A stretch of DNA of 32,000 bases from Geotalea uraniireducens Rf4 (GCF_000016745.1 NC_009483.1:2940001-2972000); one strand, 5' to 3'. Counted from the stretch's first letter, positions 1,582 to 32,000 are shown. Made by a program: numbers and translations. Notes: generated from the letters alone by a model not told the origin.

Positions 1582-1599
1582 ACGGAAAGGAACTCTATA

Positions 1600-2306: not shown

Positions 2307-2876
2307 ATGAAAATTCGAATTAAGTTGATCAGTTACATTGTTATACTGCTTGTTTGTTATGTTAGCTCTTTATCAGTATTTGGCGATCAAGCAAACCCAA
2401 ATCATGGGAAAACGCAGAGTTATCCTTTGACTCCTGAGGGTGTTGTAGAGGCTTACTGCCTTGAATCTTTCAATGGAGCAGGATTGAGTTCAGATACTTG
2501 GGTGAAAATACAAAAATACACCGTATGGGAAGATGGCCCTGGATGGGATACAGCTGTCGTGGTTTCAAATTACAAAATAACAAAAATAAGAGAGTCTTCG
2601 AATACAGCCGAAATAAAAGTTGAATATGAAATTATTGCTGATCTTCCAGCAGATATAAGAGGGTTTAAATTGACAACCGATAGGTTGTCAGTGGCTTTCC
2701 TGTATAAATTGATTAAACAAGAAGGTCACTGGAAAATAAAATCACCCCAGGAGCCACCTCACATTTCAATATCAGCCACAATAGATAAGTTGAATAACTA
2801 TATTTCAGTAAAAAGAGATGCTAGAACAATTAATAATATTAGATCAATTATATATTATCTAAACAATAAAAAATAA
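2307..2876 (+). CDS. Hypothetical exported protein (189 aa), very AT-rich
   Basis: AAGGAGG Shine-Dalgarno. N-terminal hydrophobic signal segment LISYIVILLVCYVSSLSVFG. No family recognised. Lies immediately upstream of the NlpC/P60-like head of the giant gene. Confidence 0.55.
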   Translation: MKIRIKLISYIVILLVCYVSSLSVFGDQANPNHGKTQSYPLTPEGVVEAYCLESFNGAGLSSDTWVKIQKYTVWEDGPGWDTAVVVSNYKITKIRESSNTAEIKVEYEIIADLPADIRGFKLTTDRLSVAFLYKLIKQEGHWKIKSPQEPPHISISATIDKLNNYISVKRDARTINNIRSIIYYLNNKK

Positions 2877-2900
2877 CTTTGACAATAGGAGATTTTACTT

Positions 2901-3320
2901 ATGGGCAATAATGTAATAATCAATGCTAAAAATAAATATGGTAATGGTGGTTATGATTATGGTTATGGTGGTAATGGGACAAAAGATACTGATCGTAATG
3001 GAAAATTGGATATAGATTGTTCTCACTTGGTAAACGATGCACTCCAACAGTCTGGATATGATATACCGTATATGACAACCGGCGAAATGAGGGGATCAAA
3101 AGGAAATAAATATTTTGATAACGTGTCCCCCGATGATGTTAGACCGGGTGATATTATCGTTTTTAAAGGGCATACCGGAGTTGTTGAAAGTTATGACCCT
3201 GAAACAAATACCGGAAAGTTCTTTGGGTCTCAGTCCAAAGGGCCAGCAACAACAGAATTTGGCACGGATACAATAAAAGGGTGGGATAAACCATTTAAGA
3301 TTCTGCGACCAAAAGGAGAT
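2901..3320 (+). other. NlpC/P60-like (papain-fold) cysteine peptidase/amidase domain of the giant protein
   Basis: DCSHLV motif (Cys40) and PGDIIVFKGHTGVV (His91) match the NlpC/P60 Cys-His arrangement (DCSG[FL]V ... GD[LI]VFF..HVGIY). Not verified with an HMM. Confidence 0.65.
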
Positions 3321-13730: not shown

Positions 13731-13787
13731 AGTCCCTTAGAAAAATTATTTGCATGTTTTTTGCGAAGAATTTTTCGTGAAGGGACT
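13731..13787 (+). terminator. Compound hairpin between the giant gene and the glycosyltransferase gene (possible attenuator)
   Basis: AGTCCCTT (13731-13738) pairs with AAGGGACT (13780-13787). An inner pair is GAAAAATT (13740-13747) with AATTTTTC (13769-13776). There is no clean 3' U-run. Confidence 0.3.
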
Positions 13788-13820
13788 TATCCCGTTCATA
13801 GGGGTTACGATGAGGAAACC

Positions 13821-15050
13821 ATGAGCCGTTTTTTGCTGGCATGGGCATTGGGTGGCAATTACGGCCATTTGGGTAAATTGGCACCACTGACGAGAGCACT
13901 CAAGGATAGTGGACATGATGTGGCCCTTGCCGTCAGGGATCTTTCCACTCTGGGGCAGTTCCTTGACCGTTCCGAGGCGACTTTTCTACAGGCGCCTGTT
14001 GACGCCCCCCCAAGATGGAGGCTACAGCCAGCGAGCTTTGCCGATATCCTTGAAGAAAGCGGTTTCGGCAATCCTGACCGGCTTGATGGGCTGGTACGAG
14101 GTTGGCACGGCCTCTTTGATCTCTACCGACCCGACGTGGTGGTGGCGGAATATGCGCCGTCAGCCGTATTTGCCGCTAAGCTGGCAGGTATACCCTGTCT
14201 GCGTATGGATACCGGCTTCGCTATTCCGCCGGAGATGAGCCCCTATCCCTGCTTCCGACCTTGGCTCAAGCTACGAAGGGAACAGCTGTTGGGAAAAGAG
14301 ATGAACATGCTGCAGGCCATGAACCAAGTTCGCAAGGACTATGGCCATTCTGCGCATGAGTATCTCTTTCAGGCAGTGCAGGCCAACCTGACCCTGCTGA
14401 CAACTGTGCCGGAGCTTGATCACTACCCGGCACGCAAGGGAGGTTGCTATATCGGCCCGCTGTTGAATCTGGACACAGGGCAGAATGTCCCCTGGCCTGG
14501 AGGAAATGGAAAGCGGATATTTGCCTACCTGCGCCCTTTTCCAGAACTTGGGCTGGTACTGGATGGGCTCAGGGACTGTGGCAGTCAAACCATTGCCGTG
14601 GTTCCCGGCATCGACCAGGAGCTTTGCGACAGGTATAGCGGCAGCAATCTTTCGATCACCAGCCAAACTGCGGCATTGCGGCCTATCCTGACCAAAGCGG
14701 ATCTGGTCGTTTCCCATACCGGCCATGGCCTGACATCGGCGGCACTGCTTGCAGGGGTACCGACATTGGCAATACCGACCCAGATCGAGCAGATGATGCT
14801 GATGAGAACCATCGAACGAATTGGTATAGGTATTGGTATCACCCCCAATGCACTACGGGCACATTTTCAGGAAGTCCTGCAAAAAACCCTTGCCGATCAA
14901 GAGATTACCCACCGAACACAAGAGATTGCAGCCAAGTACAGTCGGTATGATGAAAAGAGAACCTTGGCTCGTCTAATAAAAACCATTGAGCGACTGCCTG
15001 AAGCCATCAGAAACAGGCAGCCCGGCAAACAGGAGAAAATAAACAGATGA
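13821..15050 (+). CDS. GT-B fold glycosyltransferase (GT1 / UDP-glycosyltransferase-MGT-like)
   Basis: N-terminal GGNYGHLGKLAPLTRALKDSGHDVALA and C-terminal VSHTGHGLTSAALLAGVPTLAIPTQIEQ match GT1/Glyco_tran_28_C-type donor-binding motifs. The start is placed at the ATG at 13821, preceded by GAGGA. The track ORF starts at a TTG at 13761. Confidence 0.8.
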   Translation: MSRFLLAWALGGNYGHLGKLAPLTRALKDSGHDVALAVRDLSTLGQFLDRSEATFLQAPVDAPPRWRLQPASFADILEESGFGNPDRLDGLVRGWHGLFDLYRPDVVVAEYAPSAVFAAKLAGIPCLRMDTGFAIPPEMSPYPCFRPWLKLRREQLLGKEMNMLQAMNQVRKDYGHSAHEYLFQAVQANLTLLTTVPELDHYPARKGGCYIGPLLNLDTGQNVPWPGGNGKRIFAYLRPFPELGLVLDGLRDCGSQTIAVVPGIDQELCDRYSGSNLSITSQTAALRPILTKADLVVSHTGHGLTSAALLAGVPTLAIPTQIEQMMLMRTIERIGIGIGITPNALRAHFQEVLQKTLADQEITHRTQEIAAKYSRYDEKRTLARLIKTIERLPEAIRNRQPGKQEKINR

Positions 15051-16465
15051 ATGAGCAGCACCCACCAAAACCTTCCCGCTTGGCGAGGTTGTCCTCTTGG
15101 CTGTTCAGTGCCGCCGAAACAGATTCGTTGGACTTTGCCCCTTCCATGGTTCAATTACAGGAGAAGCCGCCGGCACCGCTGGGACGGACCGTGTTGAAGG
15201 TTGTAGCGATACTGTTCTGTTGCGTCCTGCTTTGGGCTGTTCTGGGGCGACTGGATATCGTGGCAGTTGCGGAAGGTAAGCTGGTACCGAAGACTTACTT
15301 GAAGATCGTGCAGCCTTCTGAACAGGGAATCGTGGAGGAGATCATGGTCAAAGAGGGGCAGTCGGTTACCAAGGGGCAACTCCTGATGCGGATGGATGCG
15401 GTACTCTCCACTGCGGAAGGAAAATCCCTGGCTTCGGAATTCCACCGTTTGCGGCTTGCCCTGCGCCGGATCGATGCAGAACTGGCAGGCAGACCGCTTA
15501 CCAGGGAGAGCAATGACCCGCCTGATCTGTTCGCGCAGGTATCAGCACAATATCATACCAACCGTCAGGCCCATCAGAGCGCCATTGACGAGCAGCAAAG
15601 CGTACTGGAGCGCGCCAGCCAGGATATGGCCTCTGCCCGGGAAATCAAGGCAAAGCTTGAGCAGACACTCCCCCATTACCGTGAGATGGAAAAGGCCTAC
15701 GAGGATCTTTTCAAAGTAGGAACAGTGGCAAAGCTTCAATTTTCAGAGAAGCAACGTGATCGCATTGAGAAGGAACATGACCTTAAGACCCAGGAGTACA
15801 CCCTAAAAAGCAATCAAGCACTGATGGCCCAAACTCTGAAAAATATGGCTCAGCTTACTGCCGACAACCGGCGACAGTTGCAGACAGAACGAGTTGAGAC
15901 AATGGGACAGCTTGAGAAGATCACACAGGAGTTGGCCAAGCAGCAGCACCGTCACCAGCTGCTGGAATTGAAGGCCTCCAACGACGGAGTTGTGAAGGAT
16001 TTGGCAACACATACCGCCGGTACGGTGGTAACGCCGGGGACAATCCTGATGACCCTGGTACCGAAGGAAGAACCGCTGCAGGCTGAGGTATGGGTTAGCA
16101 ACGAAGATATCGGCTTCGTGCGTCCTGATCAACCGGTGAAGGTCAAACTTTCTGCCTTTAGCTTCCAGAAATACGGCATGTTGGACGGAAAAGTGGAGCA
16201 GGTCAGTGCCGATTCCAGCGAAAATCCAAACCAGAGCGGAACGATCGATTCGACCACGTCAGTTCCCCCCAGGGACCTAAGCCGACTGCGCTACAAAACC
16301 CTGATCGCTCTTTCCACCCAGCAACTCATTGCCGACGGACAGAAGCACAAATTGACACCGGGCATGCAGGTATCGGCGGAGATCAAGCTCGGTACGAGAT
16401 CGGTGGTGGAATATCTGTTCTCGCCGGTGACGAAGGCCTTCCATGAAGCGGGGCGAGAGCGGTAA
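15047..16465 (+). CDS. HlyD-family type I secretion periplasmic adaptor (MFP)
   Basis: N-terminal TM segment, a long coiled-coil region (residues about 120-300) and a C-terminal beta-barrel ending in GM.V.AEI..G.RSV.EY..SP. The ATG overlaps the glycosyltransferase stop (ATGA at 15047-15050). Confidence 0.92.
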   Translation: MNEQHPPKPSRLARLSSWLFSAAETDSLDFAPSMVQLQEKPPAPLGRTVLKVVAILFCCVLLWAVLGRLDIVAVAEGKLVPKTYLKIVQPSEQGIVEEIMVKEGQSVTKGQLLMRMDAVLSTAEGKSLASEFHRLRLALRRIDAELAGRPLTRESNDPPDLFAQVSAQYHTNRQAHQSAIDEQQSVLERASQDMASAREIKAKLEQTLPHYREMEKAYEDLFKVGTVAKLQFSEKQRDRIEKEHDLKTQEYTLKSNQALMAQTLKNMAQLTADNRRQLQTERVETMGQLEKITQELAKQQHRHQLLELKASNDGVVKDLATHTAGTVVTPGTILMTLVPKEEPLQAEVWVSNEDIGFVRPDQPVKVKLSAFSFQKYGMLDGKVEQVSADSSENPNQSGTIDSTTSVPPRDLSRLRYKTLIALSTQQLIADGQKHKLTPGMQVSAEIKLGTRSVVEYLFSPVTKAFHEAGRER

Positions 16466-18893: not shown

Positions 18894-20218
18894 GGGCCTG
18901 TCAATAGTTTTGTGTAAATGGTTTTGGTTCCCTGTTTTTAATAGCTTGGCATTCTGTCTTCAAAAAGAATGGAAAAGCGGTTCATGGCAGCTTTCCAGTC
19001 TCTGATCGGCAGGGTCCATTTCTTCGCGATGTTTCTCAGCGCCAGGTATAGTAACTTGAACATTGCCTCATCATTGGGAAACGAGCCCCGGTTTTTGGTC
19101 ACCTTTCTGAGTGACATATTCAGTGATTCAATGGCATTGGTTGTGTAAATAACCTTTCGTATATCAGCTGGATAGGCAAAAAATGGTATAACTTGCGCCC
19201 AGTTCCGGCGCCAGGACTGGCTGATCGTCGGGTGTGTTTTGTCCCATTTTGCCTCAAATGCTGTCAGTTCCATTTCGGCCTGCTCAGCGGTCGCTGACTG
19301 GTAGATAACCTTCAAATCTGTCGCAACTTCTTTGCGTTGTTTCCACGAAACGAACTTCAAGGAATTGCGTACCATATGGACGATGCAAAGTTGGACTTGA
19401 GTGTTGGGATAAACTATTTCTATGGCCTCAGGGAACCCCTTCAGGCCGTCAACGCAGGCAATGAAGATGTCTTGGACACCACGGTTCTTAAGTTCGGTCA
19501 CAACCTGCAACCAGAACTTGGCTCCTTCGTTTTCGGAGACCCACATTCCCAGAACTTCCTTGGCACCGTCTATGTTGATGCCGATGGCCAGATAGACAGC
19601 CTTGTTCACAACATGGCCATTGCCTCTGGCTTTGACCCTGATGGCATCCATGTAAACGATGGGATAAAGCGCATCCAACGGGCGGTTCTGCCAAGCTTTG
19701 ACCTCTTCAGCTACTGCTTCAGTCACTATTGAAATCAGAGCGGGGGATACTTCAACACCGTAGATTTCCTCCAAGTGTCCCTGGATCTCACGAGTGGTAA
19801 GCCCGCGGGAGTACAGGGAGATAATCTTATCATCGAACTCGGCGAACCGGGTTTGGCCTTTGGGAATGATGACTGGTTCAAAGCTGCTATCCCGGTCACG
19901 AGGGACCTCAATCGGCATGGTGCCAAAATCGCCTTTGATGGTCTTTGCCGACGAGCCATTGCGTGCATTGCCACCTTTGGCGGAAACGGAAGCATGCTTC
20001 TCGTGGCCGAGGTGCAGTGTCATTTCAGCCTGGAGCGCCCGCTGAAGAACAGCCTTGGTCAACTGCTTCAGCAGCCCGTTTTCCCCTAGAATCTCTTCGG
20101 GGGTCTTATAATGTTTGAGTAGATCGTCGATTACGTCGGTGTTAATAGTCATGTGATCTCCTTAGGGTAACTTGGTGTACCCCCTAATGACCATTTACAC
20201 AAACCTTTTTACACCCTC
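18894..20218 (-). mobile_element. IS256-family insertion sequence (1325 bp) with an 8-bp target site duplication CAGTTTTG
   Basis: Perfect direct repeat CAGTTTTG at 18886-18893 and 20219-20226. The imperfect terminal inverted repeats match at 23 of 29 positions and contain TTTGTGTAAATGGT. A single Mutator-type transposase gene lies inside. Confidence 0.9.
18938..20152 (-). CDS. IS256-family (Mutator-type) transposase, 404 aa
   Basis: Full-length ORF with the typical IS256-family N-terminus (LLKQLTKAVLQRALQAEMTLHLG) and DDE core (YPIVYMDAIRV ... FIACVDGLKGFPEAI ... TTNAIESLN). Confidence 0.95.
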   Translation of the reverse strand: MTINTDVIDDLLKHYKTPEEILGENGLLKQLTKAVLQRALQAEMTLHLGHEKHASVSAKGGNARNGSSAKTIKGDFGTMPIEVPRDRDSSFEPVIIPKGQTRFAEFDDKIISLYSRGLTTREIQGHLEEIYGVEVSPALISIVTEAVAEEVKAWQNRPLDALYPIVYMDAIRVKARGNGHVVNKAVYLAIGINIDGAKEVLGMWVSENEGAKFWLQVVTELKNRGVQDIFIACVDGLKGFPEAIEIVYPNTQVQLCIVHMVRNSLKFVSWKQRKEVATDLKVIYQSATAEQAEMELTAFEAKWDKTHPTISQSWRRNWAQVIPFFAYPADIRKVIYTTNAIESLNMSLRKVTKNRGSFPNDEAMFKLLYLALRNIAKKWTLPIRDWKAAMNRFSILFEDRMPSY

Positions 20219-20682: not shown

Positions 20683-21360
20683 ATGAAGACCATACTCGTG
20701 ATCGAAGACGAAAAGGACCTGGCGGAACTGATAGCCTTCAACCTGGAAAAGGAAGGATACCGGCCGCTCATCGCCCTTGATGGGATTTCCGGCCTGGAAG
20801 CCGTGCGCAGCAATCCTCCCGACCTCATTCTCCTGGATCTGATGCTCCCCGGCTTATTAGGAACCGAGATCTGCAAACTCCTGAAGAAGAATGAAAAAAC
20901 CGCCGCCATTCCGATCATCATGCTAACAGCCAAGGGTGAGGAGATAGACCGGGTCGTCGGTTTTGAAGTGGGCGCGGACGATTACATGGTGAAACCTTTC
21001 TCCACCCGGGAGCTGCTGCTGCGGGTCAAGGCGGTGCTGCGCCGCACCATGCCGGAAAAAACAGCAGAAAAGCGCATCACCATCGGCCTCGTCACCATCG
21101 ACACCGAACGCCACCTGGTCAACGTTGCCGGTGAAGAGATTATCCTCACGACCACCGAATTCAAGCTGCTCCTTAACCTGGCCGAACGCCTGGGGCGTGT
21201 GCAGAGCCGTGACATCCTGCTGCAAAACGTCTGGGGATACAATTACGTGGGGGACAGCCGGACGGTGGATACCCATGTGACAAGGCTCAGGACCAAACTC
21301 GGCGAGGCGGGAGAAATGATCAAGACCGTGCGCGGTTTCGGCTACAAGATGGAGGAATAA
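20683..21360 (+). CDS. phoB: OmpR/PhoB-family phosphate regulon response regulator
   Basis: Receiver domain (ILVIEDE...DLILLDLMLPG...LTAKG) plus a winged-helix output (TVDTHVTRLRTKLG...IKTVRGFGY). It lies directly upstream of the pst operon. Confidence 0.8.
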   Translation: MKTILVIEDEKDLAELIAFNLEKEGYRPLIALDGISGLEAVRSNPPDLILLDLMLPGLLGTEICKLLKKNEKTAAIPIIMLTAKGEEIDRVVGFEVGADDYMVKPFSTRELLLRVKAVLRRTMPEKTAEKRITIGLVTIDTERHLVNVAGEEIILTTTEFKLLLNLAERLGRVQSRDILLQNVWGYNYVGDSRTVDTHVTRLRTKLGEAGEMIKTVRGFGYKMEE

Positions 21361-21723: not shown

Positions 21724-22752
21724 ATGCTCAACATCATCCGTAAAAGCATTCTGACCCTGGCCATCCTGGCGGTAACCGCCATCTCCGGCCAGGCATCGGC
21801 AGAAACGCTCATCAACGGCGCAGGCGCAACCTTCCCCTACCCGCTCTACTCCAAGTGGTTCGCCGAATACGCCAAGGTCGATCCGACCGTCAAGTTCAAC
21901 TACCAGTCCATCGGCTCAGGCGGCGGCATCAAGCAGATCACTGCCCAGACCGTCGATTTCGGCGCTTCCGATAAATTCCTCTCCGACGCAGAACTGAAGG
22001 CTGCCCCCGGCAAGCTGCTCCACATCCCGACCGTTATGGGCGCCGTGGTCGTCACTTACAACGTTCCCGGCGTGGGTAAAGGGCTGAAGCTTTCTTCCGA
22101 AGATGTGGCTGATATCTACCTGGGGAAGATCACCAAGTGGAACGACCCGAAGATCGCCAACGACAACCCCAAGATCAAGCTTCCCAACCAGCCGATCATC
22201 GTTGTTCACCGCTCTGACGGGAGCGGCACCACGAGCATCTTCACCGACTATCTTTCCAGCGTCAGCCCGGAATGGGCAGGCAAGGTGGGCAAGGGTGCTT
22301 CCGTCAAGTGGCCTATCGGCCTCGGCGGCAAGGGTAACGAAGGGGTTGCCGGACAGGTCAAGACCACCCAGTACACCATCGGTTACGTGGAACTGGCCTA
22401 TGCCTTCGAAAACAAGCTTCCTTTCGCCACATTGAAAAACAAGAGCGGCAATTTCGTCGAGCCTTCCATCAAGTCCACCAGCGCAGCAGCTGCCGGCGCG
22501 GCCAAATCCATGCCTGCCGATTACCGCATCTCGCTGGTCAACCAGCCGGGCAAGGATGCCTACCCGATCGTCGGCTTCACCTGGCTCCTCGTCTACCAGG
22601 ACCAGAAGGACAAGGTAATAGGAAAGAAGCTGGTCGAGTTCCTCAACTGGGAATTGAAGCATGGCCAGAAGATGGCCGACAAGATCCTCTATGCGCCACT
22701 CCCTGCTAACGTGGCGAAGATGGTGGAAAAAACCGTCAAGAGCATCAAGTAA
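21724..22752 (+). CDS. pstS: Phosphate ABC transporter periplasmic phosphate-binding protein
   Basis: Signal peptide followed by the GAGATFPYPLYSKW motif. SDGSGTT and the rest of the protein are typical of PstS. The pst operon context supports the call. Confidence 0.93.
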   Translation: MLNIIRKSILTLAILAVTAISGQASAETLINGAGATFPYPLYSKWFAEYAKVDPTVKFNYQSIGSGGGIKQITAQTVDFGASDKFLSDAELKAAPGKLLHIPTVMGAVVVTYNVPGVGKGLKLSSEDVADIYLGKITKWNDPKIANDNPKIKLPNQPIIVVHRSDGSGTTSIFTDYLSSVSPEWAGKVGKGASVKWPIGLGGKGNEGVAGQVKTTQYTIGYVELAYAFENKLPFATLKNKSGNFVEPSIKSTSAAAAGAAKSMPADYRISLVNQPGKDAYPIVGFTWLLVYQDQKDKVIGKKLVEFLNWELKHGQKMADKILYAPLPANVAKMVEKTVKSIK

Positions 22753-22771
22753 CAGCTTCAAACACCAATCC

Positions 22772-22817
22772 GCCCGGGCAGGGTCCGCCACCGATTGCAC
22801 CTGCCCGGGCCTTTTTC
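22772..22817 (+). terminator. Intra-operon hairpin/attenuator after pstS
   Basis: Perfect 11-bp stem GCCCGGGCAGG / CCTGCCCGGGC (22772-22782 and 22800-22810), a 17-nt loop, then CTTTTTC. Confidence 0.6.
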
Positions 22818-22861
22818 TGCCGAAACTTTTATTACAACCGTTTCAACATTTCGTTACAAAC

Positions 22862-23836
22862 ATGTGGAGGAAGGCCGTGCCGCCCGAAGCAATCTCACAG
22901 AAGTGGAACATCAAAACCGGCCTGAACGGCGACTTCATCTTCAAGGGGATCACCGTCGTTTTCGCCTTCAGCATCCTCGCCATACTGCTTCTCATGGTCT
23001 ACGAAATGGTCGGCGAGAGCCTCCCCGCCATGAGAAAATTCGGCTGGCGGTTCATCACCAGCAGTGATTGGGATGCGGTGCAGGAGACCTTCGGCGCGCT
23101 TCCCTACCTCTGGGGCTCGGTGGTTTCATCGATCCTCGCCCTCCTTCTCGCAACGCCGCTTTCCATCGGCAGCGCCGTCTTCATCACCGAGATCGCGCCG
23201 AAAAAGTTCGGCGGCGTGATCGCCGCCCTGGTCGAGCTCCTGGCCGCCATCCCGAGCGTCATCTACGGCCTCTGGGGGGTGCTGGTCATGGCGCCATGGC
23301 TGCAGCGGACCGTCCAGCCGTTTCTCATCGATCACTTCGGCTTCCTCCCCCTCTTCAAGGGGGCACCCTACGGGGTGAGCATGCTCGCCGCGGTCTTCAT
23401 CCTGATGATCATGGTGGTGCCGATCATCACCTCCATCACCAAGGAGGTGCTTCTGGCCGTGCCCCAGAGCCAGAAAGAGGCTGCCATCGCCCTCGGCGCG
23501 ACCCGCTGGGAGATGATCCGCATGGCAGTCCTCCCCTACGGCCGCTCCGGCATCCTGGGAGCGGTGATCCTCGGCCTGGGGCGGGCCATCGGCGAGACCA
23601 TGGCGGTCACCATGGTGATCGGCAACACGCCGCAGATATCCCTGTCGCTCCTCTCCCCCGCCTACACCATGCCGAGCGTCATCGCCAACGAATTCGCCGA
23701 GGCAAGCTCGCAGCTCCACTCCGCGGCGCTCATGGAGATCGGCCTCATCCTGCTGGTGGTCACCCTCGTCATCAACGCCCTTGCCCGCTTTCTGATCTGG
23801 AGCGTGAACCGAAAACAGAGCGGAGGTGGACTATGA
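22862..23836 (+). CDS. pstC: Phosphate ABC transporter permease PstC
   Basis: Multi-TM protein with the EAA-like loop (KEAAIALGATRWEMI). The start is uncertain. The ATG at 22862 is used; the GTG at 22877, preceded by GGAGGAAGG, is an alternative. The track ORF start at 22661 overlaps pstS. Confidence 0.88.
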   Translation: MWRKAVPPEAISQKWNIKTGLNGDFIFKGITVVFAFSILAILLLMVYEMVGESLPAMRKFGWRFITSSDWDAVQETFGALPYLWGSVVSSILALLLATPLSIGSAVFITEIAPKKFGGVIAALVELLAAIPSVIYGLWGVLVMAPWLQRTVQPFLIDHFGFLPLFKGAPYGVSMLAAVFILMIMVVPIITSITKEVLLAVPQSQKEAAIALGATRWEMIRMAVLPYGRSGILGAVILGLGRAIGETMAVTMVIGNTPQISLSLLSPAYTMPSVIANEFAEASSQLHSAALMEIGLILLVVTLVINALARFLIWSVNRKQSGGGL

Positions 23837-24675
23837 TGCGGAGTGTCGCCCTGCGCAAGGCAAAAAACCTGCTGATGACGGCGCTGATGGTCGCTGCGAC
23901 CCTGTCGGTGCTGGTGCCGCTCGTCTTCATCTTCGTCCATATCGTGAAGATGGGACTTAGTTCCGTAAATCTCGACTTTTTCACCCAGATACCGAAACCG
24001 ACCGGCGAGACCGGCGGCGGCATGGCCAACGGCATGGTGGGCTCCGCGGTGATGATCGCCATGGCCTCGTTAATAGGCCTCCCCATCGGCATCTTCGGCG
24101 CCATTTACCTGGCCGAATACGGCGGCAGCCGCATCTCCACCGTCATCCGCTTTGCCGCCGACGTACTTTCCGGCATCCCCTCCATCATCACCGGCATGGT
24201 CGCCTACACCCTGCTCGTGGTGCCGATGAAGGGCTTTTCCGCCCTGGCCGGCGCAGTGGCCCTGGCGATGATCATGATCCCCATAGTGCTCCGCACCACC
24301 GAGGAACAGCTGAAGATGGTCCCCGGCACCCTGCGTGAAGCCTCGCTGGCACTGGGGGTGCCGCTCTGGCGCACGAGCCTCAAGGTCACCCTGAGGAGCG
24401 CCATGACCGGGGTCATGACCGGCATACTCCTCTCCGTCGCCCGGGTAGCGGGGGAAACCGCGCCGCTCCTCTTCACAGCTCTCGGCAACCAGTTCTGGAG
24501 CAGGAAACTCACCGAACCGATGGCGGCGATGCCGCTACAGATCTTCAACTTCGCCATCTCGCCATACGAGGACTGGCACCGCCTCGCCTGGGCAGGCGCC
24601 CTGGTCCTGGTGACGGTCATGTTCTCCTTGAGCCTGGCTGCGCGGTATTTCGGCAGAAGCAGACAAGAAGGCTGA
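23833..24675 (+). CDS. pstA: Phosphate ABC transporter permease PstA
   Basis: MMRSVALRKAKN... begins at an ATG overlapping the pstC stop (ATGA at 23833-23836). It carries TM segments and the loop REASLALGVPLWRT. The 255 codons upstream in the track ORF are a Gly/Arg/Pro-rich out-of-frame read of pstC. Confidence 0.9.
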   Translation: MMRSVALRKAKNLLMTALMVAATLSVLVPLVFIFVHIVKMGLSSVNLDFFTQIPKPTGETGGGMANGMVGSAVMIAMASLIGLPIGIFGAIYLAEYGGSRISTVIRFAADVLSGIPSIITGMVAYTLLVVPMKGFSALAGAVALAMIMIPIVLRTTEEQLKMVPGTLREASLALGVPLWRTSLKVTLRSAMTGVMTGILLSVARVAGETAPLLFTALGNQFWSRKLTEPMAAMPLQIFNFAISPYEDWHRLAWAGALVLVTVMFSLSLAARYFGRSRQEG

Positions 24676-24727
24676 CAACCTGCCACGGAGACACAGAGAC
24701 ACGGAGAAAAACGAAAAATACAACATT

Positions 24728-25082
24728 GTCGAACCGCAAAGTCGCAAAGGGCGCCAAGAAAACTTAAAAAAAGCCAGCGTTGTCCGGTTTGGTTTTTGCT
24801 TACGTCCCGTAGGGACAGAATACTGGTAGCCGGGGAATTCATTCCCCGGTCATCCAGGCGAAATATCATCACGTCACGTACATGACGTGGGGAAATATAG
24901 CATCTCATCCGGGGGATGAATCCTCCGGGGGATGAATCCCCCGGCTACATTCGAACGCCCCTAATGGGGCTTAACAACCTTGATGCACAAACCAAACCGG
25001 ACAACGCTGAAAAAAAGCTATTTTTTAGTGCCTTAGACAAAAAGAAAGTAGTTTTCGATTTTACTTTGCGAACTTTGCGGTT
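24728..25082. repeat. Outer inverted repeat (CGCAAAG-type palindromic element) whose centre received the MITE
   Basis: The left arm GTCGAACCGCAAAGTCGCAAAG...GAAAACT (24728-24764) is the imperfect reverse complement of AGTTTTC...CTTTGCGAACTTTGCGGTT (25050-25082). A further CTTTGCGGTT copy lies at about 25098-25107. Confidence 0.55.
24775..25009. mobile_element. 235-bp MITE (non-autonomous IS4-family derivative) with a 9-bp target site duplication AAAAAAAGC
   Basis: Terminal inverted repeats CAGCGTTGTCCGGTTTGGTTT[T/G]TGC match at 24 of 25 positions. Perfect direct repeat AAAAAAAGC at 24766-24774 and 25010-25018. There is no coding capacity. The interior is rich in hairpins. Confidence 0.88.
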
Positions 25083-25161
25083 TAGGCTCTTTGGGGCCTT
25101 TGCGGTTCAAAGGTTCTGATTCTATTTATACGTATTTCTGGCAAGAACAAAAGAGGTCTGA

Positions 25162-25920
25162 ATGAACACCAAGGTAAAACTGGAAAATCTCAACGTCCAT
25201 TTCGGCAGCAACCACGCGGTCAAGGATGTCTCCATCGACTTCCCGGAAAACAGCGTCACCGCCATCATCGGCCCTTCGGGGTGCGGCAAATCGACGGTGC
25301 TCCGCTCCATCAACCGGATGCACGACCTGGCGCCTGCGGCACGGGTCACGGGCAAGATCATCCTTGACGACACCGACATCTACGACAAGGGGGTGGACCC
25401 GGTCTCCATCAGGAGAAGGGTCGGCATGGTCTTCCAGAAACCTAACCCCTTCCCGGCCATGTCGATTTATGATAACGTGATTGCCGGTTACAAGCTGAAC
25501 GGCAGGGTCAACCGGAGCGAGGCGGACGAGATCGTCGAGTCGTCTCTCAAACGGGTCGCCCTCTGGGACGAGGTGAAGGACCGGCTGAAGGCAAGCGCCA
25601 TGGAACTTTCCGGCGGCCAGCAGCAAAGGCTCTGCATCGCCAGGACCATTGCCGTAAGACCGGAGGTGATCCTCATGGACGAACCGGCTTCGGCTCTCGA
25701 CCCGCTCTCGACCCTGAAGATCGAGGAACTGATCGAGGAACTGAAGGAGAAGTACACCATCATCATCGTCACCCACAACATGCAGCAGGCCGCCCGCGTC
25801 TCCGACTTCACCGCCTTTTTCTACCTGGGAGAGCTGATCGAATGCGGCGAAACGAGGAAGGTCTTCACCACCCCGGACAAGAAACAGACCGAGGATTACA
25901 TCACCGGCCGATTTGGGTAA
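25162..25920 (+). CDS. pstB: Phosphate ABC transporter ATP-binding protein PstB
   Basis: Walker [10 protein letters not shown], signature [13 protein letters not shown], Walker [12 protein letters not shown] and the typical PstB C-terminus [10 protein letters not shown]. Confidence 0.95.
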
Positions 25921-25926
25921 GAACCG

Positions 25927-25954
25927 GTTCGACGTTCGACGTTCGACGTTCGAC
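25927..25954. repeat. (GTTCGAC)4 heptanucleotide tandem array
   Basis: Four perfect copies plus a partial GTT, starting 7 nt after the pstB stop codon. Confidence 0.97.
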
Positions 25955-25973
25955 GTTGAAAAACCTTAAACCT

Positions 25974-26071
25974 GAAACTTCGAACTTAGAACTTCGAACT
26001 TAGAACTTAGAACTTAGAACTTCGAACTTCGAACTTCGAACTTAGAACTTCGAACTTCGAACTTCGAACTT
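25974..26071. repeat. ([C/A]GAACTT) heptanucleotide tandem array: 13 exact units plus one degenerate leading unit
   Basis: Units start every 7 nt from 25981 to 26065. The first base follows the pattern C A C A A A C C C A C C C. The array ends 17 nt before the phoU ATG. The unit is the reverse complement of GTTCGAA, so it is inverted relative to the upstream GTTCGAC array. Confidence 0.97.
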
Positions 26072-26087
26072 AAAACATGAGGTTACC

Positions 26088-26759
26088 ATGGAAAGAGAAC
26101 ATTTCAGCAAAGTATTCGACGAGGAACTGAACACCATCCGCGAGAAGCTCCTCGAAATGGGGGGGAAGGTGGAGGTGATGATCGCCAACTCGATGAAATC
26201 CCTCGTGGAGCGGGACTCCGAGCTGGCCGAACGAACCATTGCCTTTGACCACGAGATCAACCACCTGGAGATGGAGATCGACGAGAGATGCCTGGAAGTG
26301 CTGGCGCGCCGCCAGCCGGCAGCCCGCGACCTGCGTTTCATCACCCTGGCGCTCAAGATCGTCACCGACCTGGAGCGGATCGGCGACCAGTGTACTGGCA
26401 TTGCCAAAAGGGCCAAGGAGCTGAACATGGAGCCGCCGCTCAAACCTTACATCGACCTCCCCCGCATGGCCGACTGGGCTTCGATGATGGTCAAGGAAGC
26501 GCTCGACGCCTTCGTCCGCGGCGACGACACCCTGGCGATCAAGGTCTGCAAGGACGACCAGTTCGTGGACGAGCTGAACGAGCAGATCCAGCGGGAACTC
26601 CTCACCTTCATGATGGGGGACCCGTCCACCATCAGCCGCGCCATCAAGGTCAACTACATCTCCAAGTGCCTGGAGCGGATCGCGGACCACGCCACCAACG
26701 TGGCAGAAATGGTCATCTTCATGGTCAAGGGGAAGGACATCCGCCATACCATCGCCTGA
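26088..26759 (+). CDS. phoU: Phosphate signalling complex protein PhoU
   Basis: Two PhoU repeats with D...E..C motifs (EIDERCLEVLARRQP..DLR; ERIGD and ERIADHATNVAE). It is the last gene of the pst operon. Confidence 0.93.
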   Translation: MEREHFSKVFDEELNTIREKLLEMGGKVEVMIANSMKSLVERDSELAERTIAFDHEINHLEMEIDERCLEVLARRQPAARDLRFITLALKIVTDLERIGDQCTGIAKRAKELNMEPPLKPYIDLPRMADWASMMVKEALDAFVRGDDTLAIKVCKDDQFVDELNEQIQRELLTFMMGDPSTISRAIKVNYISKCLERIADHATNVAEMVIFMVKGKDIRHTIA

Positions 26760-26783: not shown

Positions 26784-26812
26784 GGGCGCAGCGGCTGTTG
26801 CGCCCTTTTTTT
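26784..26812 (+). terminator. Rho-independent terminator of the pst-phoU operon
   Basis: GGGCGCA / TGCGCCC stem with an 8-nt loop, followed by seven T residues (26806-26812). Confidence 0.75.
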
Positions 26813-27045
26813 GGAAGAACATTCTCCCGACGGAGGAAGAAGCACCCTCTCGTATATTGGTTTCTTGAACAACGGATATCCCTTCCACTGAATATCAGTT
26901 GGGTCAGATGCCGCCGGCAAAGGTTCTCAGTTCAACGCAAAGCCATTGTTCCAAATCGGCAATGTCATACACGAAATGCTTCCATGCGGGTCATTGCACC
27001 CAACGACACAATTGTTACATTTATGTAAATTATGACAGTCAAACC

Positions 27046-28380
27046 CAGTAACTTCCGGTTAGGTTTTTGCACGACGTTTCTTACGTTTCAACTGTCTAAT
27101 TTTGTTTGAGTTACCTTGTATTCTTGTGCGACGGCTCTGCTGTTCGGCTGCTGCTTCATTTGCAATCTGATTGCGTAATTCTCGTACCCTGCTAATGCTG
27201 ACTGGCTCCTGGTGCTGCTCACGGCAATAGATGGCTAGCAGCAGATAGGTGATGAGACCACCAAGTATTTGAACCATGAGACCATATTCGCTTCTGGCAA
27301 TCAGGTGATACACCTTTAGGTGGCGTTTCCACCAACCGAAGAAGGTCTCTATGTTCCAGCGCAGTTTATAAACCTGGGCCACTTCTTCAGCCGTCAGGTC
27401 GTATCTGTTGGTTGCTACCCAGTAGTCCTTGCCGTCAATACGGTAACCAACAAGGCGCAGCTCTTTCTCAGTCTGGTTTATACCTTTGGTGCCGAGAAGT
27501 ACTATCTGGTCATAGAAGACAATACTGTCAGGATTTACGGCATTCTCTCTGATGACGGTTTTGTGTGTATTCTCCCTGATACGGCAGACAAAAAACTTCT
27601 CGGCGGCCTGCCACTGGTCAAAGTGATTATGAGACTGATACCCACGATCCATGACACCGGTTTCGCCTTTGTCGATGATCTTATCAACAAAGGGGCGCTC
27701 ACCCTCTTTACCGTCGGTCAGGAATATCTTCCTTGGAATACCACGGTTGATATCGAAGCCGATATGGGCCTTGGCCTTCTTAGAGCCGCTTCGGTAATCT
27801 GCCCATTCCATAGATAGAACAGCATCTATCAAAGAACCGTCTATGGATACCAGATTGCCAAGGTGAGCATATTCATCGGGAAGCACTCTGCCTGCTTGCT
27901 TGACAAGATGCCCGAATACCTCGGAAAGCTGTTCAAGACCACGGTTGTTGATTGCCTCAAAGAAAGAGCTCTTTTTGATTCCCTTGGGGGGAGCAACACA
28001 TTCCTTGGCGAAGTCATCCTGATCCAGCGCCTGGAGAAGTTCGCTCCCGGAAGAGAACTCTTCCAAGTGATAAAAGATCAGGGCTTTTAGCTGATCATCG
28101 AAAGTCATTTGCAACGGGCGATACCCCCTGGATTCAAGTTCATTATCTGACTTGAATCTCTCAAAAATCGGGGTAAGAAGCAATTTGAAAGCGCGTGATT
28201 TTCGTCTTTGTTTCAGTCGTTTGAACGGTCGCATATCGTAACTCCTGTAATATTGGATAGTTACGAGTGCGGACCACCGTTTTTTTACTCAAAGTCAAGC
28301 AAATAATGCGGTATAACGCTGATTTTACAACTTTTTTACATTCTCAAAGAACCTTGCAAAGACCAAACCGGACAATGCTG
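27046..28380 (-). mobile_element. IS4-family insertion sequence (about 1335 bp) with a 9-10 bp target site duplication AGTCAAACC(C)
   Basis: Direct repeat AGTCAAACCC at 27037-27046 and 28381-28390. Terminal inverted repeats CAG....TCCGGTT.GGT.TTTGCA match at 20 of 26 positions. It holds a single DDE transposase gene whose stop codon lies in the left repeat. Confidence 0.85.
27059..28234 (-). CDS. IS4-family DDE transposase, 391 aa
   Basis: The Y(2)R(3)E(6)K signature of IS4-family transposases is present in YKLRWNIETFFGWWK. Upstream D-containing motifs are VSIDGS and GVMDRGY. Confidence 0.92.
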   Translation of the reverse strand: MRPFKRLKQRRKSRAFKLLLTPIFERFKSDNELESRGYRPLQMTFDDQLKALIFYHLEEFSSGSELLQALDQDDFAKECVAPPKGIKKSSFFEAINNRGLEQLSEVFGHLVKQAGRVLPDEYAHLGNLVSIDGSLIDAVLSMEWADYRSGSKKAKAHIGFDINRGIPRKIFLTDGKEGERPFVDKIIDKGETGVMDRGYQSHNHFDQWQAAEKFFVCRIRENTHKTVIRENAVNPDSIVFYDQIVLLGTKGINQTEKELRLVGYRIDGKDYWVATNRYDLTAEEVAQVYKLRWNIETFFGWWKRHLKVYHLIARSEYGLMVQILGGLITYLLLAIYCREQHQEPVSISRVRELRNQIANEAAAEQQSRRTRIQGNSNKIRQLKRKKRRAKT

Positions 28381-28497
28381 AGTCAAACCCGGTTTTTCGA
28401 TACTTTTGGTTGTATTGCATGCGCTCTTCATTATAATTAGTAGAATACAGTATGAACTGCTTATTTATTCATAGTTGATGAAACAGGGACCAACTCC

Positions 28498-29001
28498 ATG
28501 AAACTCATTATTGTTCGGCATGCTGCGGCAATTGAAAAAACTTCGAGCGTTGCTGAGGAATACAGATATCTGCCCCCCGAAGGAAGGGAATTTTTTCGTA
28601 AGACAGCTCGAACTATGTCGAAAAAGGGGGTTAATCCGAGTCTGATCCTTACCAGTCCTTTGCTCAGGGCGGTGCAGACTGCGGATATCCTGGCAGAAAC
28701 CATATCGTACATCGGGCCGCTCGTGGTGGCTGACGAACTGATGCCGGGATTTGACAAAACAGCCCTGCAGAGCCTTCTCAATACCTTTCAGCCGCTGAAA
28801 GAGCTGGTGATCGTGGGACATGAACCGGACCTGAGCCTCCTCATCGCTTCGTTTCTGTCCCTGCCTGGTGGATTCAACTTCAGAAAGGGGGCCGCGGTCA
28901 AGCTGAGCATCGATACGGCGGCCCTTAACGCACCGGCAGCTTTTAAATGGCTTGCTGTCGGCAAAAAACTGATAACTGATGAAATAGATGCTTTCGTATA
29001 G
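28498..29001 (+). CDS. sixA: SixA-type phosphohistidine phosphatase
   Basis: MKLIIVRHA (RH[GA] catalytic motif), SPLLRAVQTA and VGHEPDLS, with a size of about 165 aa, match the SixA branch of the histidine phosphatase superfamily. Confidence 0.8.
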   Translation: MKLIIVRHAAAIEKTSSVAEEYRYLPPEGREFFRKTARTMSKKGVNPSLILTSPLLRAVQTADILAETISYIGPLVVADELMPGFDKTALQSLLNTFQPLKELVIVGHEPDLSLLIASFLSLPGGFNFRKGAAVKLSIDTAALNAPAAFKWLAVGKKLITDEIDAFV

Positions 29002-29034
29002 TAGTCACACATTGGGCACATGTAAGGAGTTGTT

Positions 29035-29559
29035 ATGAAACAAGCGATGAAAGAGCTGCAAAAACTGAAAGGGGTGGGAAATATTCTCGCCCAGCGTTTT
29101 ATCGAGGCCGGTTACGACACATTCGCAAAGATTGCTGCTGCCGGTGAAGAAGGACTGCGAAATATCCAGGGATTAAATCCGCGGATGGTTCCGTCGATCT
29201 TGACCCAGGCCGTTGAGCTGGCCGGTGAAGCGGGGAAAACGCGAGCTGAAAAGGTGGAGGAATTGAAGCTTAAAGCCGCTTCCATGAAGGAACAGGTTCA
29301 GGATATAGCCCTGAGTGTGCGTAATCGTTTCAAGGAGGAGGCTACCGGCAAAACGGGTAAAAAGGTGGAAAAGGAAATACTGAAGGTCATTTCCTCTCTG
29401 GAGAAGGTGGAAAGCAAGTTGGAGACCAAGGTGAAGAAAACCGGAAAAGTGCTGGTAAAGGCCGAGAAGCGACTTGCCGGCCTTACGGAAACAGGGCTCA
29501 AAGGGGTTGGGAAAGGGCTGAAAAAGGCCAGAAAATCACTTGAGAGGGTATTTGCCTAA
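29035..29559 (+). CDS. Helix-hairpin-helix domain protein with a Lys-rich coiled-coil tail
   Basis: AAGGAG Shine-Dalgarno. LKGVGNILAQRFIEAGYDTFAKIAAA is an HhH motif. The C-terminal 100 aa are K/E-rich and amphipathic. Confidence 0.6.
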   Translation: MKQAMKELQKLKGVGNILAQRFIEAGYDTFAKIAAAGEEGLRNIQGLNPRMVPSILTQAVELAGEAGKTRAEKVEELKLKAASMKEQVQDIALSVRNRFKEEATGKTGKKVEKEILKVISSLEKVESKLETKVKKTGKVLVKAEKRLAGLTETGLKGVGKGLKKARKSLERVFA

Positions 29560-30246
29560 ATGAAAACCAGTCTTACAACGGAGCTTCCCGGCAAGCTGAT
29601 CGCAGTCGAAGGACTCGACGGCTCCGGCAAATCTACACAGCTATACCTGTTGAAACGTTGGCTCGAACTGCGGGGATTAAAGGTTTACTTCACCGAATGG
29701 AACTCTTCTGTAATCGTCAAGAAGGCGACCTCAAAAGGGAAAAAACGGCAACTCCTTACACCGACCACCTTCAGCCTCATCCACAGTGCGGATTTAGCCG
29801 ATCGTTACGAACGGCAGATCCTTCCCCTGCTCAAGGCAGGCTATCTGGTTCTCTGTGATCGCTATGTTTATACCGCCTTTGCCCGGGATGCCGTGCGGGG
29901 CTGTTCCCGCACCTGGCTGCGCAACCTGTATGGATTCGCCCGCCACCCGGACCTGACCCTGTTCTTCGATACCCCCCTTTCGGTGGCGCTCTCGCGCATA
30001 CTTTCCGGCCGGCCGCAGTTGAAATACCATGAGGCGGGGATGGACCTGGGCCTTGCCAATGATCCGTACCAGAGTTTCCGGCTCTTCCAGGAGCGCATAT
30101 ACAACGAGTATCTCGGCATGAGGGATGAATTTTCTTTCGTGACAATCGACGGCTCGGTATCCATCGAAGAACAGCAGATCAAGGTTCGGGAAATCGTCGG
30201 CCAGAGTTTCGACCTTCCCATTTATCGCTGGAAAACCGTAAAGTGA
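29560..30246 (+). CDS. Thymidylate-kinase-like P-loop kinase, paralogue 1
   Basis: IAVEGLDGSGKSTQ P-loop and a CDRYVYTAF (DRY) motif. It shares YHEAGMDLGL with the next gene. The ATG abuts the upstream stop (TAAATG). Confidence 0.8.
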   Translation: MKTSLTTELPGKLIAVEGLDGSGKSTQLYLLKRWLELRGLKVYFTEWNSSVIVKKATSKGKKRQLLTPTTFSLIHSADLADRYERQILPLLKAGYLVLCDRYVYTAFARDAVRGCSRTWLRNLYGFARHPDLTLFFDTPLSVALSRILSGRPQLKYHEAGMDLGLANDPYQSFRLFQERIYNEYLGMRDEFSFVTIDGSVSIEEQQIKVREIVGQSFDLPIYRWKTVK

Positions 30247-30295
30247 GACAAATAAACGGCAGAGTTTTTTAGCGCTGCCGTGCAAGAGGAATCGG

Positions 30296-30979
30296 ATGAG
30301 ATTTTATGGAGAAGGGCTTCCCGGTGTAGACCCGGGGAATCTTGCAGGGAAGTTGATCGTCATCGAAGGGGCGGATGGCTCGGGTAGATCGACGCAAATG
30401 GAGTTGCTCAAGGATTATCTGGAAGGGAAAGGGCACGCTACGGTAAACGTGGGGTTGCTCCGCTCCACTCTTGTCTCGGAAGAACTGAACGAGGCGAAAC
30501 AGGGGAACGTGCTCGGCGAGATAACCAGGAGCCTTTTCTATGCCACGGATTTTGCCGACCAGCTTGAAAACCGCATCATTCCCGCGATGAAAGCCGGCTT
30601 TATTGTCCTCGCCGACCGCTACATCTATACGCTGATGGCTCGTGACATCGTCCGTGGAGCTGACCGCGACTGGGTACGCGCGCTCTACGGCATAGCCGTA
30701 GTACCGGATCTGGTCATATACCTGCGGGTGAGTCCGGCACAACTGGTCGAACGAAACTTCCGCAAGAATTCCACCCTCGATTACTGGGAAGCGGGGATGG
30801 ACCTGGGACTTTCCCGCGACATCTTCGACAGCTTCATGCGCTACCAGAAGCTCATTCAGAAGGAATTCAGCCTGTTGCAGCAGGAGTACGGCTTTCACGT
30901 GGTAAACGGCAACCGGTCGATCAGGTCCGCATCCGGGGAAATAACCGCCCGCGTCGAAGATTTACTGGGGATCAAATGA
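30296..30979 (+). CDS. Thymidylate-kinase-like P-loop kinase, paralogue 2
   Basis: IVIEGADGSGRSTQ P-loop, ADRYIYTLMA and YWEAGMDLGL. It is collinear with paralogue 1 along its whole length. Confidence 0.8.
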   Translation: MRFYGEGLPGVDPGNLAGKLIVIEGADGSGRSTQMELLKDYLEGKGHATVNVGLLRSTLVSEELNEAKQGNVLGEITRSLFYATDFADQLENRIIPAMKAGFIVLADRYIYTLMARDIVRGADRDWVRALYGIAVVPDLVIYLRVSPAQLVERNFRKNSTLDYWEAGMDLGLSRDIFDSFMRYQKLIQKEFSLLQQEYGFHVVNGNRSIRSASGEITARVEDLLGIK

Positions 30980-31326
30980 CCATGACCGGCATCAAGCGCG
31001 GAGCAAAAAAAAGTACGAAAAGTGAAGACATGCGCGAGGATTTTATCCGGGAGCTGAAACACCTCCGCACCCTGGTGCGCGAAGTCGGTGAGCAGTTTAT
31101 TCTGCGGCGGGAAGGTGAGGTGGAGACCATCATCAGCCATCTGGAGGGGGTCCCGCCGAAGATATTAAGGGATCAAGCATCCGACTGGCTGCACGAGATA
31201 AAGACCCTCAAGCTGAAACCTGCCAAGGGGCGGATAAAAGACCTGAAAGGGATTGACGCATTGATCGAAGACTTGACGGATCAGATTATCAGCGCCCAGG
31301 ACGGGCACAAGCGTTCGGGCGGGTGA
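30976..31326 (+). CDS. Hypothetical protein (116 aa), start overlaps the upstream stop
   Basis: The ATG overlaps the stop of the preceding gene (ATGA at 30976-30979). The protein is charged and predicted helical. No family recognised. Confidence 0.5.
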   Translation: MTMTGIKRGAKKSTKSEDMREDFIRELKHLRTLVREVGEQFILRREGEVETIISHLEGVPPKILRDQASDWLHEIKTLKLKPAKGRIKDLKGIDALIEDLTDQIISAQDGHKRSGG

Positions 31327-31338
31327 CGGAAAGGCGCC

Positions 31339-32000
31339 ATGATGCAAGTGGAGGGAACTACACCTTTGTGGATTGCAGCCAGAGTTCTCCTCTATGAACG
31401 GGTCGATGACTTTTTCCGGCGCAGGGATAACGTGTTCAAAGCTTTTGACCCTGAGGATATCCATGACTTGCGGGTCTCCTCACGCCGTCTCCGGGAAGGT
31501 CTGACACTCTTTGCGCCGTGCTATGAACCCAAGAATATCACCCGTCTTATTAAGACTGTAAAGAGGGTAACCCGATTACTGGGAGAAATGCGCAATACCG
31601 ATGAGGCGTTGCTTTTCTTCAATGCGTTGACGGATGACGTCGATAGTATCTGTCGAAGCGATTTGGAACGATTACAGCTAATCTTCCAGAAGAACAGGAC
31701 CAAAGCGCTCAAACGACTCAAGCCCGGTTTGCGCGAAAAAGCGCCGAAGCCCTTGCGTGATTTGTATTTGCGGATAATCAACGCCCCATCCATATTCAAT
31801 CCTTCGAGCAATGACATCGACCTTTTCACCCCCCTGTCGGACTTTGCCCGGAGATCTTTCGACGTCAAAATTGCTGCCGTAACAAACCTGGTGTCCCTGG
31901 CGCGACAGGAACAAGAAATCGAGGCCCAGCACCGGTTAAGGATCGCGGTCAAACATTTCCGTTACCGGATGGAAATCCTCTCCCACCTGCTGGGAGCCGA
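31339..32000 (+). CDS. CHAD domain protein, 3'-truncated by the window edge
   Basis: Not in the ORF track because it has no stop within the window. My hand translation from the ATG at 31339 is open to 32000. It contains IHDLRVSSRRLREGLTLF and HRLRIAVKHFRYRMEIL, the repeated CHAD helix motifs. Confidence 0.8.
   Translation, partial: MMQVEGTTPLWIAARVLLYERVDDFFRRRDNVFKAFDPEDIHDLRVSSRRLREGLTLFAPCYEPKNITRLIKTVKRVTRLLGEMRNTDEALLFFNALTDDVDSICRSDLERLQLIFQKNRTKALKRLKPGLREKAPKPLRDLYLRIINAPSIFNPSSNDIDLFTPLSDFARRSFDVKIAAVTNLVSLARQEQEIEAQHRLRIAVKHFRYRMEILSHLLGA

Follow-up and report, generated by a model that had tools for sequence, protein, structure and literature searches.

A probable family-3 polyphosphate kinase operon with lineage-restricted accessory genes in Geotalea uraniireducens

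The stretch of the Geotalea uraniireducens Rf4 genome analysed here (NC_009483.1:2940001-2972000; 32,000 nucleotides, hereafter the window) ends in six co-directional and tightly packed plus-strand genes (28498-32000), which very probably belong to a bacterial, Geobacteraceae-type operon for a family-3 polyphosphate kinase (PPK3). The first gene (28498-29001) encodes a 167-residue SixA-like histidine phosphatase (His_Phos_1, E = 1.2e-6) and is followed by a gene for an HhH/Lys-rich protein of 174 residues (29035-29559; HHH_5, 1.5e-7). Next come two kinase genes, kinase A (29560-30246; 228 residues; Thymidylate_kin, 2.4e-20; annotated 'thymidylate kinase'), the predicted catalytic subunit or cPPK3, and kinase B (30296-30979; 227 residues; Thymidylate_kin, 4.4e-19), the predicted regulatory subunit or rPPK3. 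They precede a gene for a small helical protein of 116 residues that belongs to no Pfam or NCBIfam family (30976-31326) and one for a CHAD-domain protein (31339-32000; PF05235, 1.8e-33), which is cut by the window end after the first 220 of about 309 residues. All these open reading frames had been proposed in an earlier reading of the same DNA (the original prediction), and a check of the sequence found them together with the two junctions that it described: the stop of the HhH gene abuts the start of kinase A (TAAATG, 29557-29562) and the start of the small protein overlaps the stop of kinase B (ATGA, 30976-30979). The module was described as having six genes, but it comprises seven. On three metagenome contigs that are 97-99% identical to the window (L001-L003), a gene for a 513-residue Ppx-GppA+HD exopolyphosphatase (PPX) overlaps the end of the 309-residue CHAD gene, just past the point where the window stops. 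The order on L001 is pstS-pstC-pstA-pstB-phoU, then sixA-HhH-kinA-kinB-small-CHAD-ppx, and the complete seven-gene order with PPX was found in L001-L004 and in L086/L087.

The two kinases are paralogues, as had been proposed, with 42% identity over 195 residues (E = 2e-52) and the common motifs EG.DGSG[KR]STQ, DRY[VI]YT and Y[HW]EAGMDLGL. Among all PDB sequences, the best match of kinase A was STK_15430 of Sulfurisphaera tokodaii (2plr/5h70; 3e-57 over residues 11-218), a cPPK3 homologue (PMC12995831), while its best true thymidylate kinase (Tmk) scored 7e-15; kinase B matched 2plr at 3.6e-42 and its best true Tmk at 2e-11. These sequence-search scores place both proteins far closer to the cPPK3 homologue than to bona fide Tmks. 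The scores against the Tmk family TIGR00041 (cut-off 83.25 bits) were 80.7 bits for kinase B and 83.2 bits for kinase A, the latter a tiny margin and weak by itself. Neither kinase matched the PPK2 profile PF03976 at E <= 0.01 in the Pfam search. The ATP-site motifs of kinase A are intact (Walker A Lys24, D100-R101-Y102, lid Arg146) and its dTMP-site residues are replaced. In an alignment to Thermus thermophilus Tmk, TREPGG becomes TEWNSS, and LLFSADR becomes LIHSADL, so that His75 and Leu79 stand in place of a Phe and an Arg which we take to be the thymine-stacking and the O4-binding residues of Tmk. Kinase A is basic (isoelectric point, pI, 9.5) and carries EWNSS (46-50), K61, H75, R82, R151, K155, R174 and R210, residues specific to the class of related sequences, called A-class below, to which it belongs. 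Kinase B is acidic (pI 5.6), lacks the A-class basic residues (it has D155, A60 and G46), keeps DRY, R109, R113 and R146, and has an arginine for the Walker A lysine (GSGRST, position 24). In P-loop kinases this substitution normally abolishes phosphotransfer. On the basis of the class-specific residues, the charge and the dTMP-site changes, we assign kinase A as a cPPK3-type and kinase B as an rPPK3-type subunit.

How widespread this pair is was evaluated in one genome per GTDB species, using a PPK3-specific alignment of six sequences. At least 557 related stretches were confirmed and 80 loci were kept, of which all six-frame open reading frames were searched with the window proteins. The 80 loci span more than a dozen phyla, and the groups represented include Verrucomicrobiota, Acidobacteriota, Desulfuromonadales, Nitrososphaerales, Chloroflexota and Planctomycetota as well as Bacteroidota, Nitrospiraceae, Binatia, Armatimonadota, Sumerlaeota and others; the closest named homologues of the kinases are from Geobacteraceae (Geotalea uraniireducens, Geomobilimonas, Geobacter spp.). 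An A-like gene followed by an adjacent and co-directional B-like gene was found in 74 of the 80 loci, the exceptions being mostly at contig ends. Since this pair recurs in many phyla and the seven-gene order in several Geobacteraceae contigs, the arrangement of the operon is far from chance. When 84 A-class and 82 B-class sequences were aligned together, the two classes separated cleanly at the Walker A position 24, which is Lys in 84/84 A-class and Arg in 82/82 B-class sequences. DRY100-102 and Arg146 are invariant in all 84 A-class sequences. EWNSS (46-50), K61, H75, R82, R151, K155, Q206 and R210 are specific to the A-class and G46, R49, A60, Y75, D155, W157 and S159 to the B-class, and D100-R101-Y102, R109, R113, R146, E158, G160 and D162 are common to both. 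Median pI values are 9.1 for the basic A-class and 5.8 for the acidic B-class, and A is more positive than B in 75 of 79 pairs. The positively charged residues predicted to line the cleft are thus conserved in the catalytic-type subunit and absent from the regulatory type. In Alicyclobacillaceae, a natural fusion protein of 460 residues (P0121) joins a cPPK3-type to an rPPK3-type domain, which is consistent with a physical complex of the two.

The lesion seen in kinase B is not the only one found in second subunits. In P0218 and P0243, the Walker A lysine is kept and NKY stands where DRY would be; the gene for P0218 comes second in a pair, after that of a normal A-class kinase. The occurrence of both types indicates that the second subunit has been disabled in at least two ways. 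A pair of this kind is found on contig L088 (321-1699), where the second member has the Walker A Lys and NKY replacing DRY. We suspected that the NKY subunits were from Sulfolobales, an origin that we did not retain: L088, the sole contig available for them, carries secretin and Tn7 genes and looks bacterial. In the dominant bacterial rPPK3 type, the strict conservation of the remaining pocket hints at ligand binding and not at simple decay.

The core of the operon corresponds to a described system, although the original prediction could name none of this composition. In Sulfolobus acidocaldarius, the loci saci_2019 and saci_2020, both annotated as thymidylate kinases, share an operon with SixA, PPX and CHAD genes (Hofmann et al., J Biol Chem 2026, PMC12995831; bioRxiv 10.1101/2024.08.28.610084). 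Their products form PPK3, an alpha2beta2 heteromeric polyphosphate (polyP) kinase / polyP:ADP phosphotransferase in which Saci_2019 is the catalytic cPPK3 and Saci_2020 the rPPK3, inactive alone but activating cPPK3; neither has dTMP kinase (dTMPK) activity, and the reaction is reversible with polyP + ADP preferred over ATP (PMC12995831). The same study predicted that bacterial dTMPK paralogues adjoining PPX, SixA, CHAD and Pst genes are PPK3s, stated that the DRX arginine is replaced in rPPK3s, reported more than one dTMPK paralogue in every PPK3-encoding genome and the absence of both PPK1 and PPK2 from most of them, and proposed that PPK3 has replaced PPK1 in situ, or vice versa (PMC12995831). 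Its text makes no mention of Geobacter, Acidobacteria, Verrucomicrobia, HhH proteins or glucokinase (PMC12995831), and a literature search combining Geobacter with polyphosphate kinase returned nothing specific.

As in S. acidocaldarius, the window has two adjacent dTMPK-fold paralogues, catalytic then regulatory, in one operon with SixA, CHAD and PPX; the dTMP-site residues are lost, and of the two subunits only the catalytic one is basic. Family membership, the assignment of the subunits and the conservation of the operon come directly from the sequence comparisons made here. The idea of a heteromeric, polyP-linked phosphotransfer system, as opposed to a housekeeping dTMP kinase, is supported: sequence, motifs and gene context agree with the PPK3 shown for the homologous Saci_2019/Saci_2020. 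There are also clear differences. The gene order is sixA-ppx-c-r-CHAD in Sulfolobus and sixA-HhH-c-r-small-CHAD-ppx here, with two extra genes (HhH/Lys-rich and small four-helix). Kinase B, unlike the Sulfolobus rPPK3, keeps the DRX arginine and has its Walker A Lys replaced by Arg. The bacterium that carries the window operon is mesophilic, the operon is linked to pstSCAB-phoU, and the system is known here from sequence alone.

The closest solved structure, that of STK_15430 (PDB 2plr, 4nzy, 4rzx, 5h70), has EWNSS, DRY.YTA.ARD and the lid arginine in common with kinase A, and KPQEAGAD where the bacterial family has Y[HY]EAGMD; when it was crystallised and received its name as a Tmk, the function of PPK3 was not yet known. 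With canonical Tmk (TIGR00041, PF02223) the window kinases share the fold, the P-loop, the DRX motif and the lid, but their thymine/dTMP contacts are replaced, their scores are below cut-off, and they form an obligate pair in an operon with polyP genes. Another parallel is the two-domain class II PPK2 (e.g. P. aeruginosa PA3455), in which an active P-loop module is joined to an inactive paralogous module driving oligomerisation and activation, with polyP as phosphodonor. However, this PPK2 belongs to an unrelated P-loop kinase family and has its modules fused in one chain, whereas the window has two genes (a c-r fusion of PPK3 is known from Alicyclobacillaceae). Finally, the accessories around the kinases are those of bacterial ppk1-ppx/CHAD/SixA neighbourhoods (PPX, SixA, CHAD, Pst), but no PPK1 gene is present at the window locus.

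The first operon protein, for which the original prediction proposed a role as phosphohistidine phosphatase, is by its motifs a SixA-like, conserved accessory, with RHA (residues 7-9) and GHEP; it scored above the Pfam cut-off for His_Phos_1 and 54.8 bits against TIGR00249 (cut-off 74.5). The CHAD match reached 116.9 bits against a cut-off of 25.6 and, up to the window end, spanned positions 3-197 of the 228-position profile. The AlphaFold2 model of the HhH protein has a confident N-terminal (HhH)2 domain (residues 1-60, confidence score pLDDT > 80) followed by a long helical tail of lower confidence, with a predicted template modelling score of 0.39; the tail (residues 66-174) has a pI of 10.1 and 24 Lys. 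Weak NCBIfam matches of this protein to RadA, ribosomal proteins and 'phasin PhaH' were rejected, being far under the cut-offs and limited to the HhH motif. Its homologues were found only in Geobacteraceae/Desulfuromonadales. Another Geobacteraceae metagenome-assembled genome has one HhH copy inside the operon (L086) and a second, stand-alone one (L085). The stand-alone HhH/Lys-rich paralogue (L085, 8001-8525) lies far from PPK3 genes and is from metagenome sample ERZ27284375, as is the in-operon copy L087; the existence of this copy means that the HhH/Lys-rich family is not exclusive to PPK3.

The small protein has 97 homologues, all of them hypothetical proteins of Geobacteraceae, and distant homologues occupy the same slot after kinase B in single loci of Terriglobia, Sumerlaeota, Goldiibacteriota and an unclassified bacterium. 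Its AlphaFold2 model is a four-helix bundle (pLDDT 72) and its most conserved segment is a basic K-P-x-K-G-R motif. A fold search against the PDB gave nothing significant, the best match (E = 0.27) being to generic helical bundles. Its identity as a CHAD fragment or a known domain was rejected, given the hhalign probability of 0.3% to CHAD and the lack of any Pfam/NCBIfam family or significant fold match. From their distribution, the HhH/Lys-rich and the small four-helix proteins appear to be lineage-restricted additions to the operon, and as accessories they may bind the kinase complex, or else polyP, DNA or both.

Around the kinase pair, within 5 kb at the 80 scanned loci, PPX was the most frequent neighbour (49 loci), followed by SixA (29), CHAD (24), PstB (12), a ROK-family sugar kinase (12), PhoB/PhoR-like two-component genes (10), PhoU (7) and PPK2 (6; PF03976, 3.9e-77). 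At least one polyP or phosphate gene (PPX, SixA, CHAD, Pst, PhoU, PPK2 or ROK kinase) was present at 59 loci. Only the A-then-B core is fixed; the surrounding gene order varies. The ROK kinase (PF00480, 6.6e-70) comes directly behind kinase B, chiefly in Verrucomicrobiota, and PPX is often the next gene (L006, L007 at 11470-12462, L011, L013, L014, L017-L019, L023, L025, L026 and L043). The ROK family presumably includes polyP glucokinases, and this gene is a possible polyP-glucokinase partner of the rPPK3-type gene that it follows. The PPK2 genes were found at L020, L032 (8916-9734), L033, L034, L036 and L041, mostly in Acidobacteriota; both kinase families therefore coexist in some genomes. 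At the Geobacteraceae locus L086 (GCA_009773645.1, 12916-16484), PPX is followed by a 648-residue protein with a weak PhoU_div match and then by a 541-residue PPDK_N/PEP-utilizers protein.

Upstream of the operon lie the phosphate-uptake genes pstS-pstC-pstA-pstB-phoU (21724-26759, plus strand), which are 98-99% identical to those of L001; PhoU was recognised at 26088-26759 (4.3e-47), and the pst-region genes of L001 carry PBP_like_2, BPD_transp_1 (two genes), ABC_tran and PhoU domains. The original prediction placed the cluster beside pst-phoU. These genes are indeed upstream and co-directional, but they do not directly adjoin the operon in this genome, as the segment 26915-28380, which has no counterpart in the otherwise 97-99% identical L001-L003, intervenes. 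It contains an IS4-family insertion sequence on the minus strand (27050-28380; transposase 27059-28234, DDE_Tnp_1, 5.3e-23), around which are 13-nt direct repeats, AGTCAAACCC[A/G]GT, at 27037-27049 and 28381-28393. About 117 bp of native sequence are left upstream of sixA. Scanned for promoters and terminators, the phoU-sixA interval gave no signal beyond that expected of shuffled sequence. Two candidate elements were read by eye, a GC-rich hairpin with a T-run after phoU (about 26784-26812) and TTGTAT-16 nt-TATAAT upstream of sixA (28410-28437). The pstA-pstB (24775-25006) and pstB-phoU (25921-26081) intergenic segments did not align to the otherwise 98-99% identical L001. Further upstream, a Mutator-family transposase (18938-20152, minus strand, 1.8e-127) lies just before an OmpR/PhoB-type response regulator (20683-21360, plus strand) that precedes pstS; no partner histidine kinase was seen between the two.

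A second seven-gene PPK3 operon in the same order was found on a Logan contig (L004, SRR9436595, 932-4977). Compared with the window's, its products show 56-88% identity, and a cytidylate-kinase-like gene replaces pst-phoU upstream. Its kinase P0097, annotated as Geotalea uraniireducens, is 83% identical to kinase A (P0001), and another protein with this annotation, P0432, is an HhH protein 67% identical to that of the window. Elsewhere in the window, a giant protein of 3598 residues (2901-13697, plus strand) has an NlpC/P60 N-terminus followed by RTX nonapeptide, HCBP_related, He_PIG and cadherin-like repeats; its neighbours are a fragment of an ABC exporter, a glycosyltransferase and an HlyD-family protein (6-1097, 13761-15050 and 15047-16465), and the region resembles a type I secretion adhesin locus. 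The interval 1001-3000 has a low GC content (0.37-0.46 against about 0.55 elsewhere), with a radical-SAM fragment (1600-2250) and two open reading frames without family match.

The activity of the pair, its assembly into a complex and the functions of the accessories are predicted by homology to the S. acidocaldarius enzyme (SaPPK3). On this basis, we propose that kinase A binds ATP/ADP in its conserved P-loop/DRX/lid site, that a basic cleft in place of the dTMP pocket would take the end of the polyP chain, and that the terminal phosphate would be moved reversibly (ATP + polyPn <-> ADP + polyPn+1). Kinase B, a putatively catalytically impaired paralogue with its Walker A Lys to Arg change and acidic surface, would oligomerise with kinase A and activate it, the CHAD protein would bind the surface of the polyP granule, and PPX would degrade polyP. 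Several observations weigh against this model. The PPK3 activity data all derive from a single archaeal enzyme at 70 °C. The DRX arginine (D-R-Y, R101) and most catalytic-site residues are retained in kinase B, as in all 82 B-class sequences, Nitrososphaerales included, so that kinase B may bind, or even turn over, a ligand; the retained arginine is a variant within the PPK3 family and does not exclude the pair from it. The IS4 insertion upstream could alter the expression of this copy of the operon, and the host genome probably holds two PPK3 operons.

The reading that competes best is that the PPK3-like pair works here essentially in one direction, as a polyP:ADP (or NDP) phosphotransferase regenerating ATP, the polyP being made by PPK1 or PPK2. 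The six loci at which PPK2 adjoins the pair show that PPK3 coexists with other polyP kinases in some bacteria, and the operon includes a degradative PPX. However, most PPK3-encoding genomes lack PPK1 and PPK2 (PMC12995831), and the direction of a reversible reaction is set by the physiology of the cell and not by sequence; we consider this reading possible without favouring it. We find it rather unlikely, if still worth stating, that the bacterial rPPK3 is a ligand-sensing pseudokinase and no dead scaffold, and that in Geobacteraceae the complex is extended by the Lys-rich HhH and the four-helix proteins as dedicated partners tethering it to the polyP granule and the nucleoid. The invariant Walker A arginine, together with the conserved DRY, lid and E-G-D residues, would allow rPPK3 to bind ATP/ADP or a polyP end without turnover, in which case it would set the direction of the catalytic subunit by energy charge; of the two partner genes, the HhH one has its stop abutting the cPPK3 start and the four-helix one its start overlapping the rPPK3 stop.

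A two-step pathway, raised in the original prediction, in which both paralogues are active on different substrates (e.g. NMP to NDP to NTP from polyP), fares less well than a catalytic and regulatory pair and seems improbable. DRY, R109, R113, R146, E158 and D162 are kept by kinase B and invariant in the 82 B-class sequences, which indicates purifying selection on its pocket and no decay. But the Walker A lysine is an arginine in every B-class sequence, kinase B is acidic and lacks the basic residues proposed for polyP binding, other lineages inactivate the second subunit differently (DRY to NKY), and the Sulfolobus rPPK3 is inactive alone (PMC12995831). Ordinary duplicated dTMP kinases lying near phosphate genes by chance can be set aside almost entirely: Pfam Thymidylate_kin matches, database names ('dTMP kinase', 'thymidylate kinase') and TIGR00041 scores barely under the cut-off speak for them, but the dTMP-binding residues are replaced, the cPPK3 structure is preferred over real Tmks by 40 orders of magnitude, the operon linkage with PPX, SixA and CHAD is kept across phyla, and the Sulfolobus homologues have no dTMPK activity (PMC12995831).

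The PPK3 system itself is already known, and bacterial operons were predicted by the paper that described it. What the present locus adds is modest: a regulatory subunit with a Walker A Arg, two lineage-restricted accessory genes, an IS-interrupted linkage to pst-phoU and a probable duplication of the operon. PPK3 has been characterised in one hyperthermophilic archaeon only, and the window locus would place the same machine in a mesophilic metal-reducing bacterium, tied to its Pst-PhoU genes. With at least 557 related stretches, and kept loci from more than a dozen phyla, the family is much broader in bacteria than 'a few bacteria'. Because PPK3 genes are still annotated 'thymidylate kinase', polyP metabolism is likely to be underestimated in genomes from soil and sediment (Acidobacteriota, Verrucomicrobiota, Geobacteraceae). 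For an enzyme family that was described recently, the variant of the regulatory subunit and the operon's two additional genes are small extensions that lend themselves to testing.

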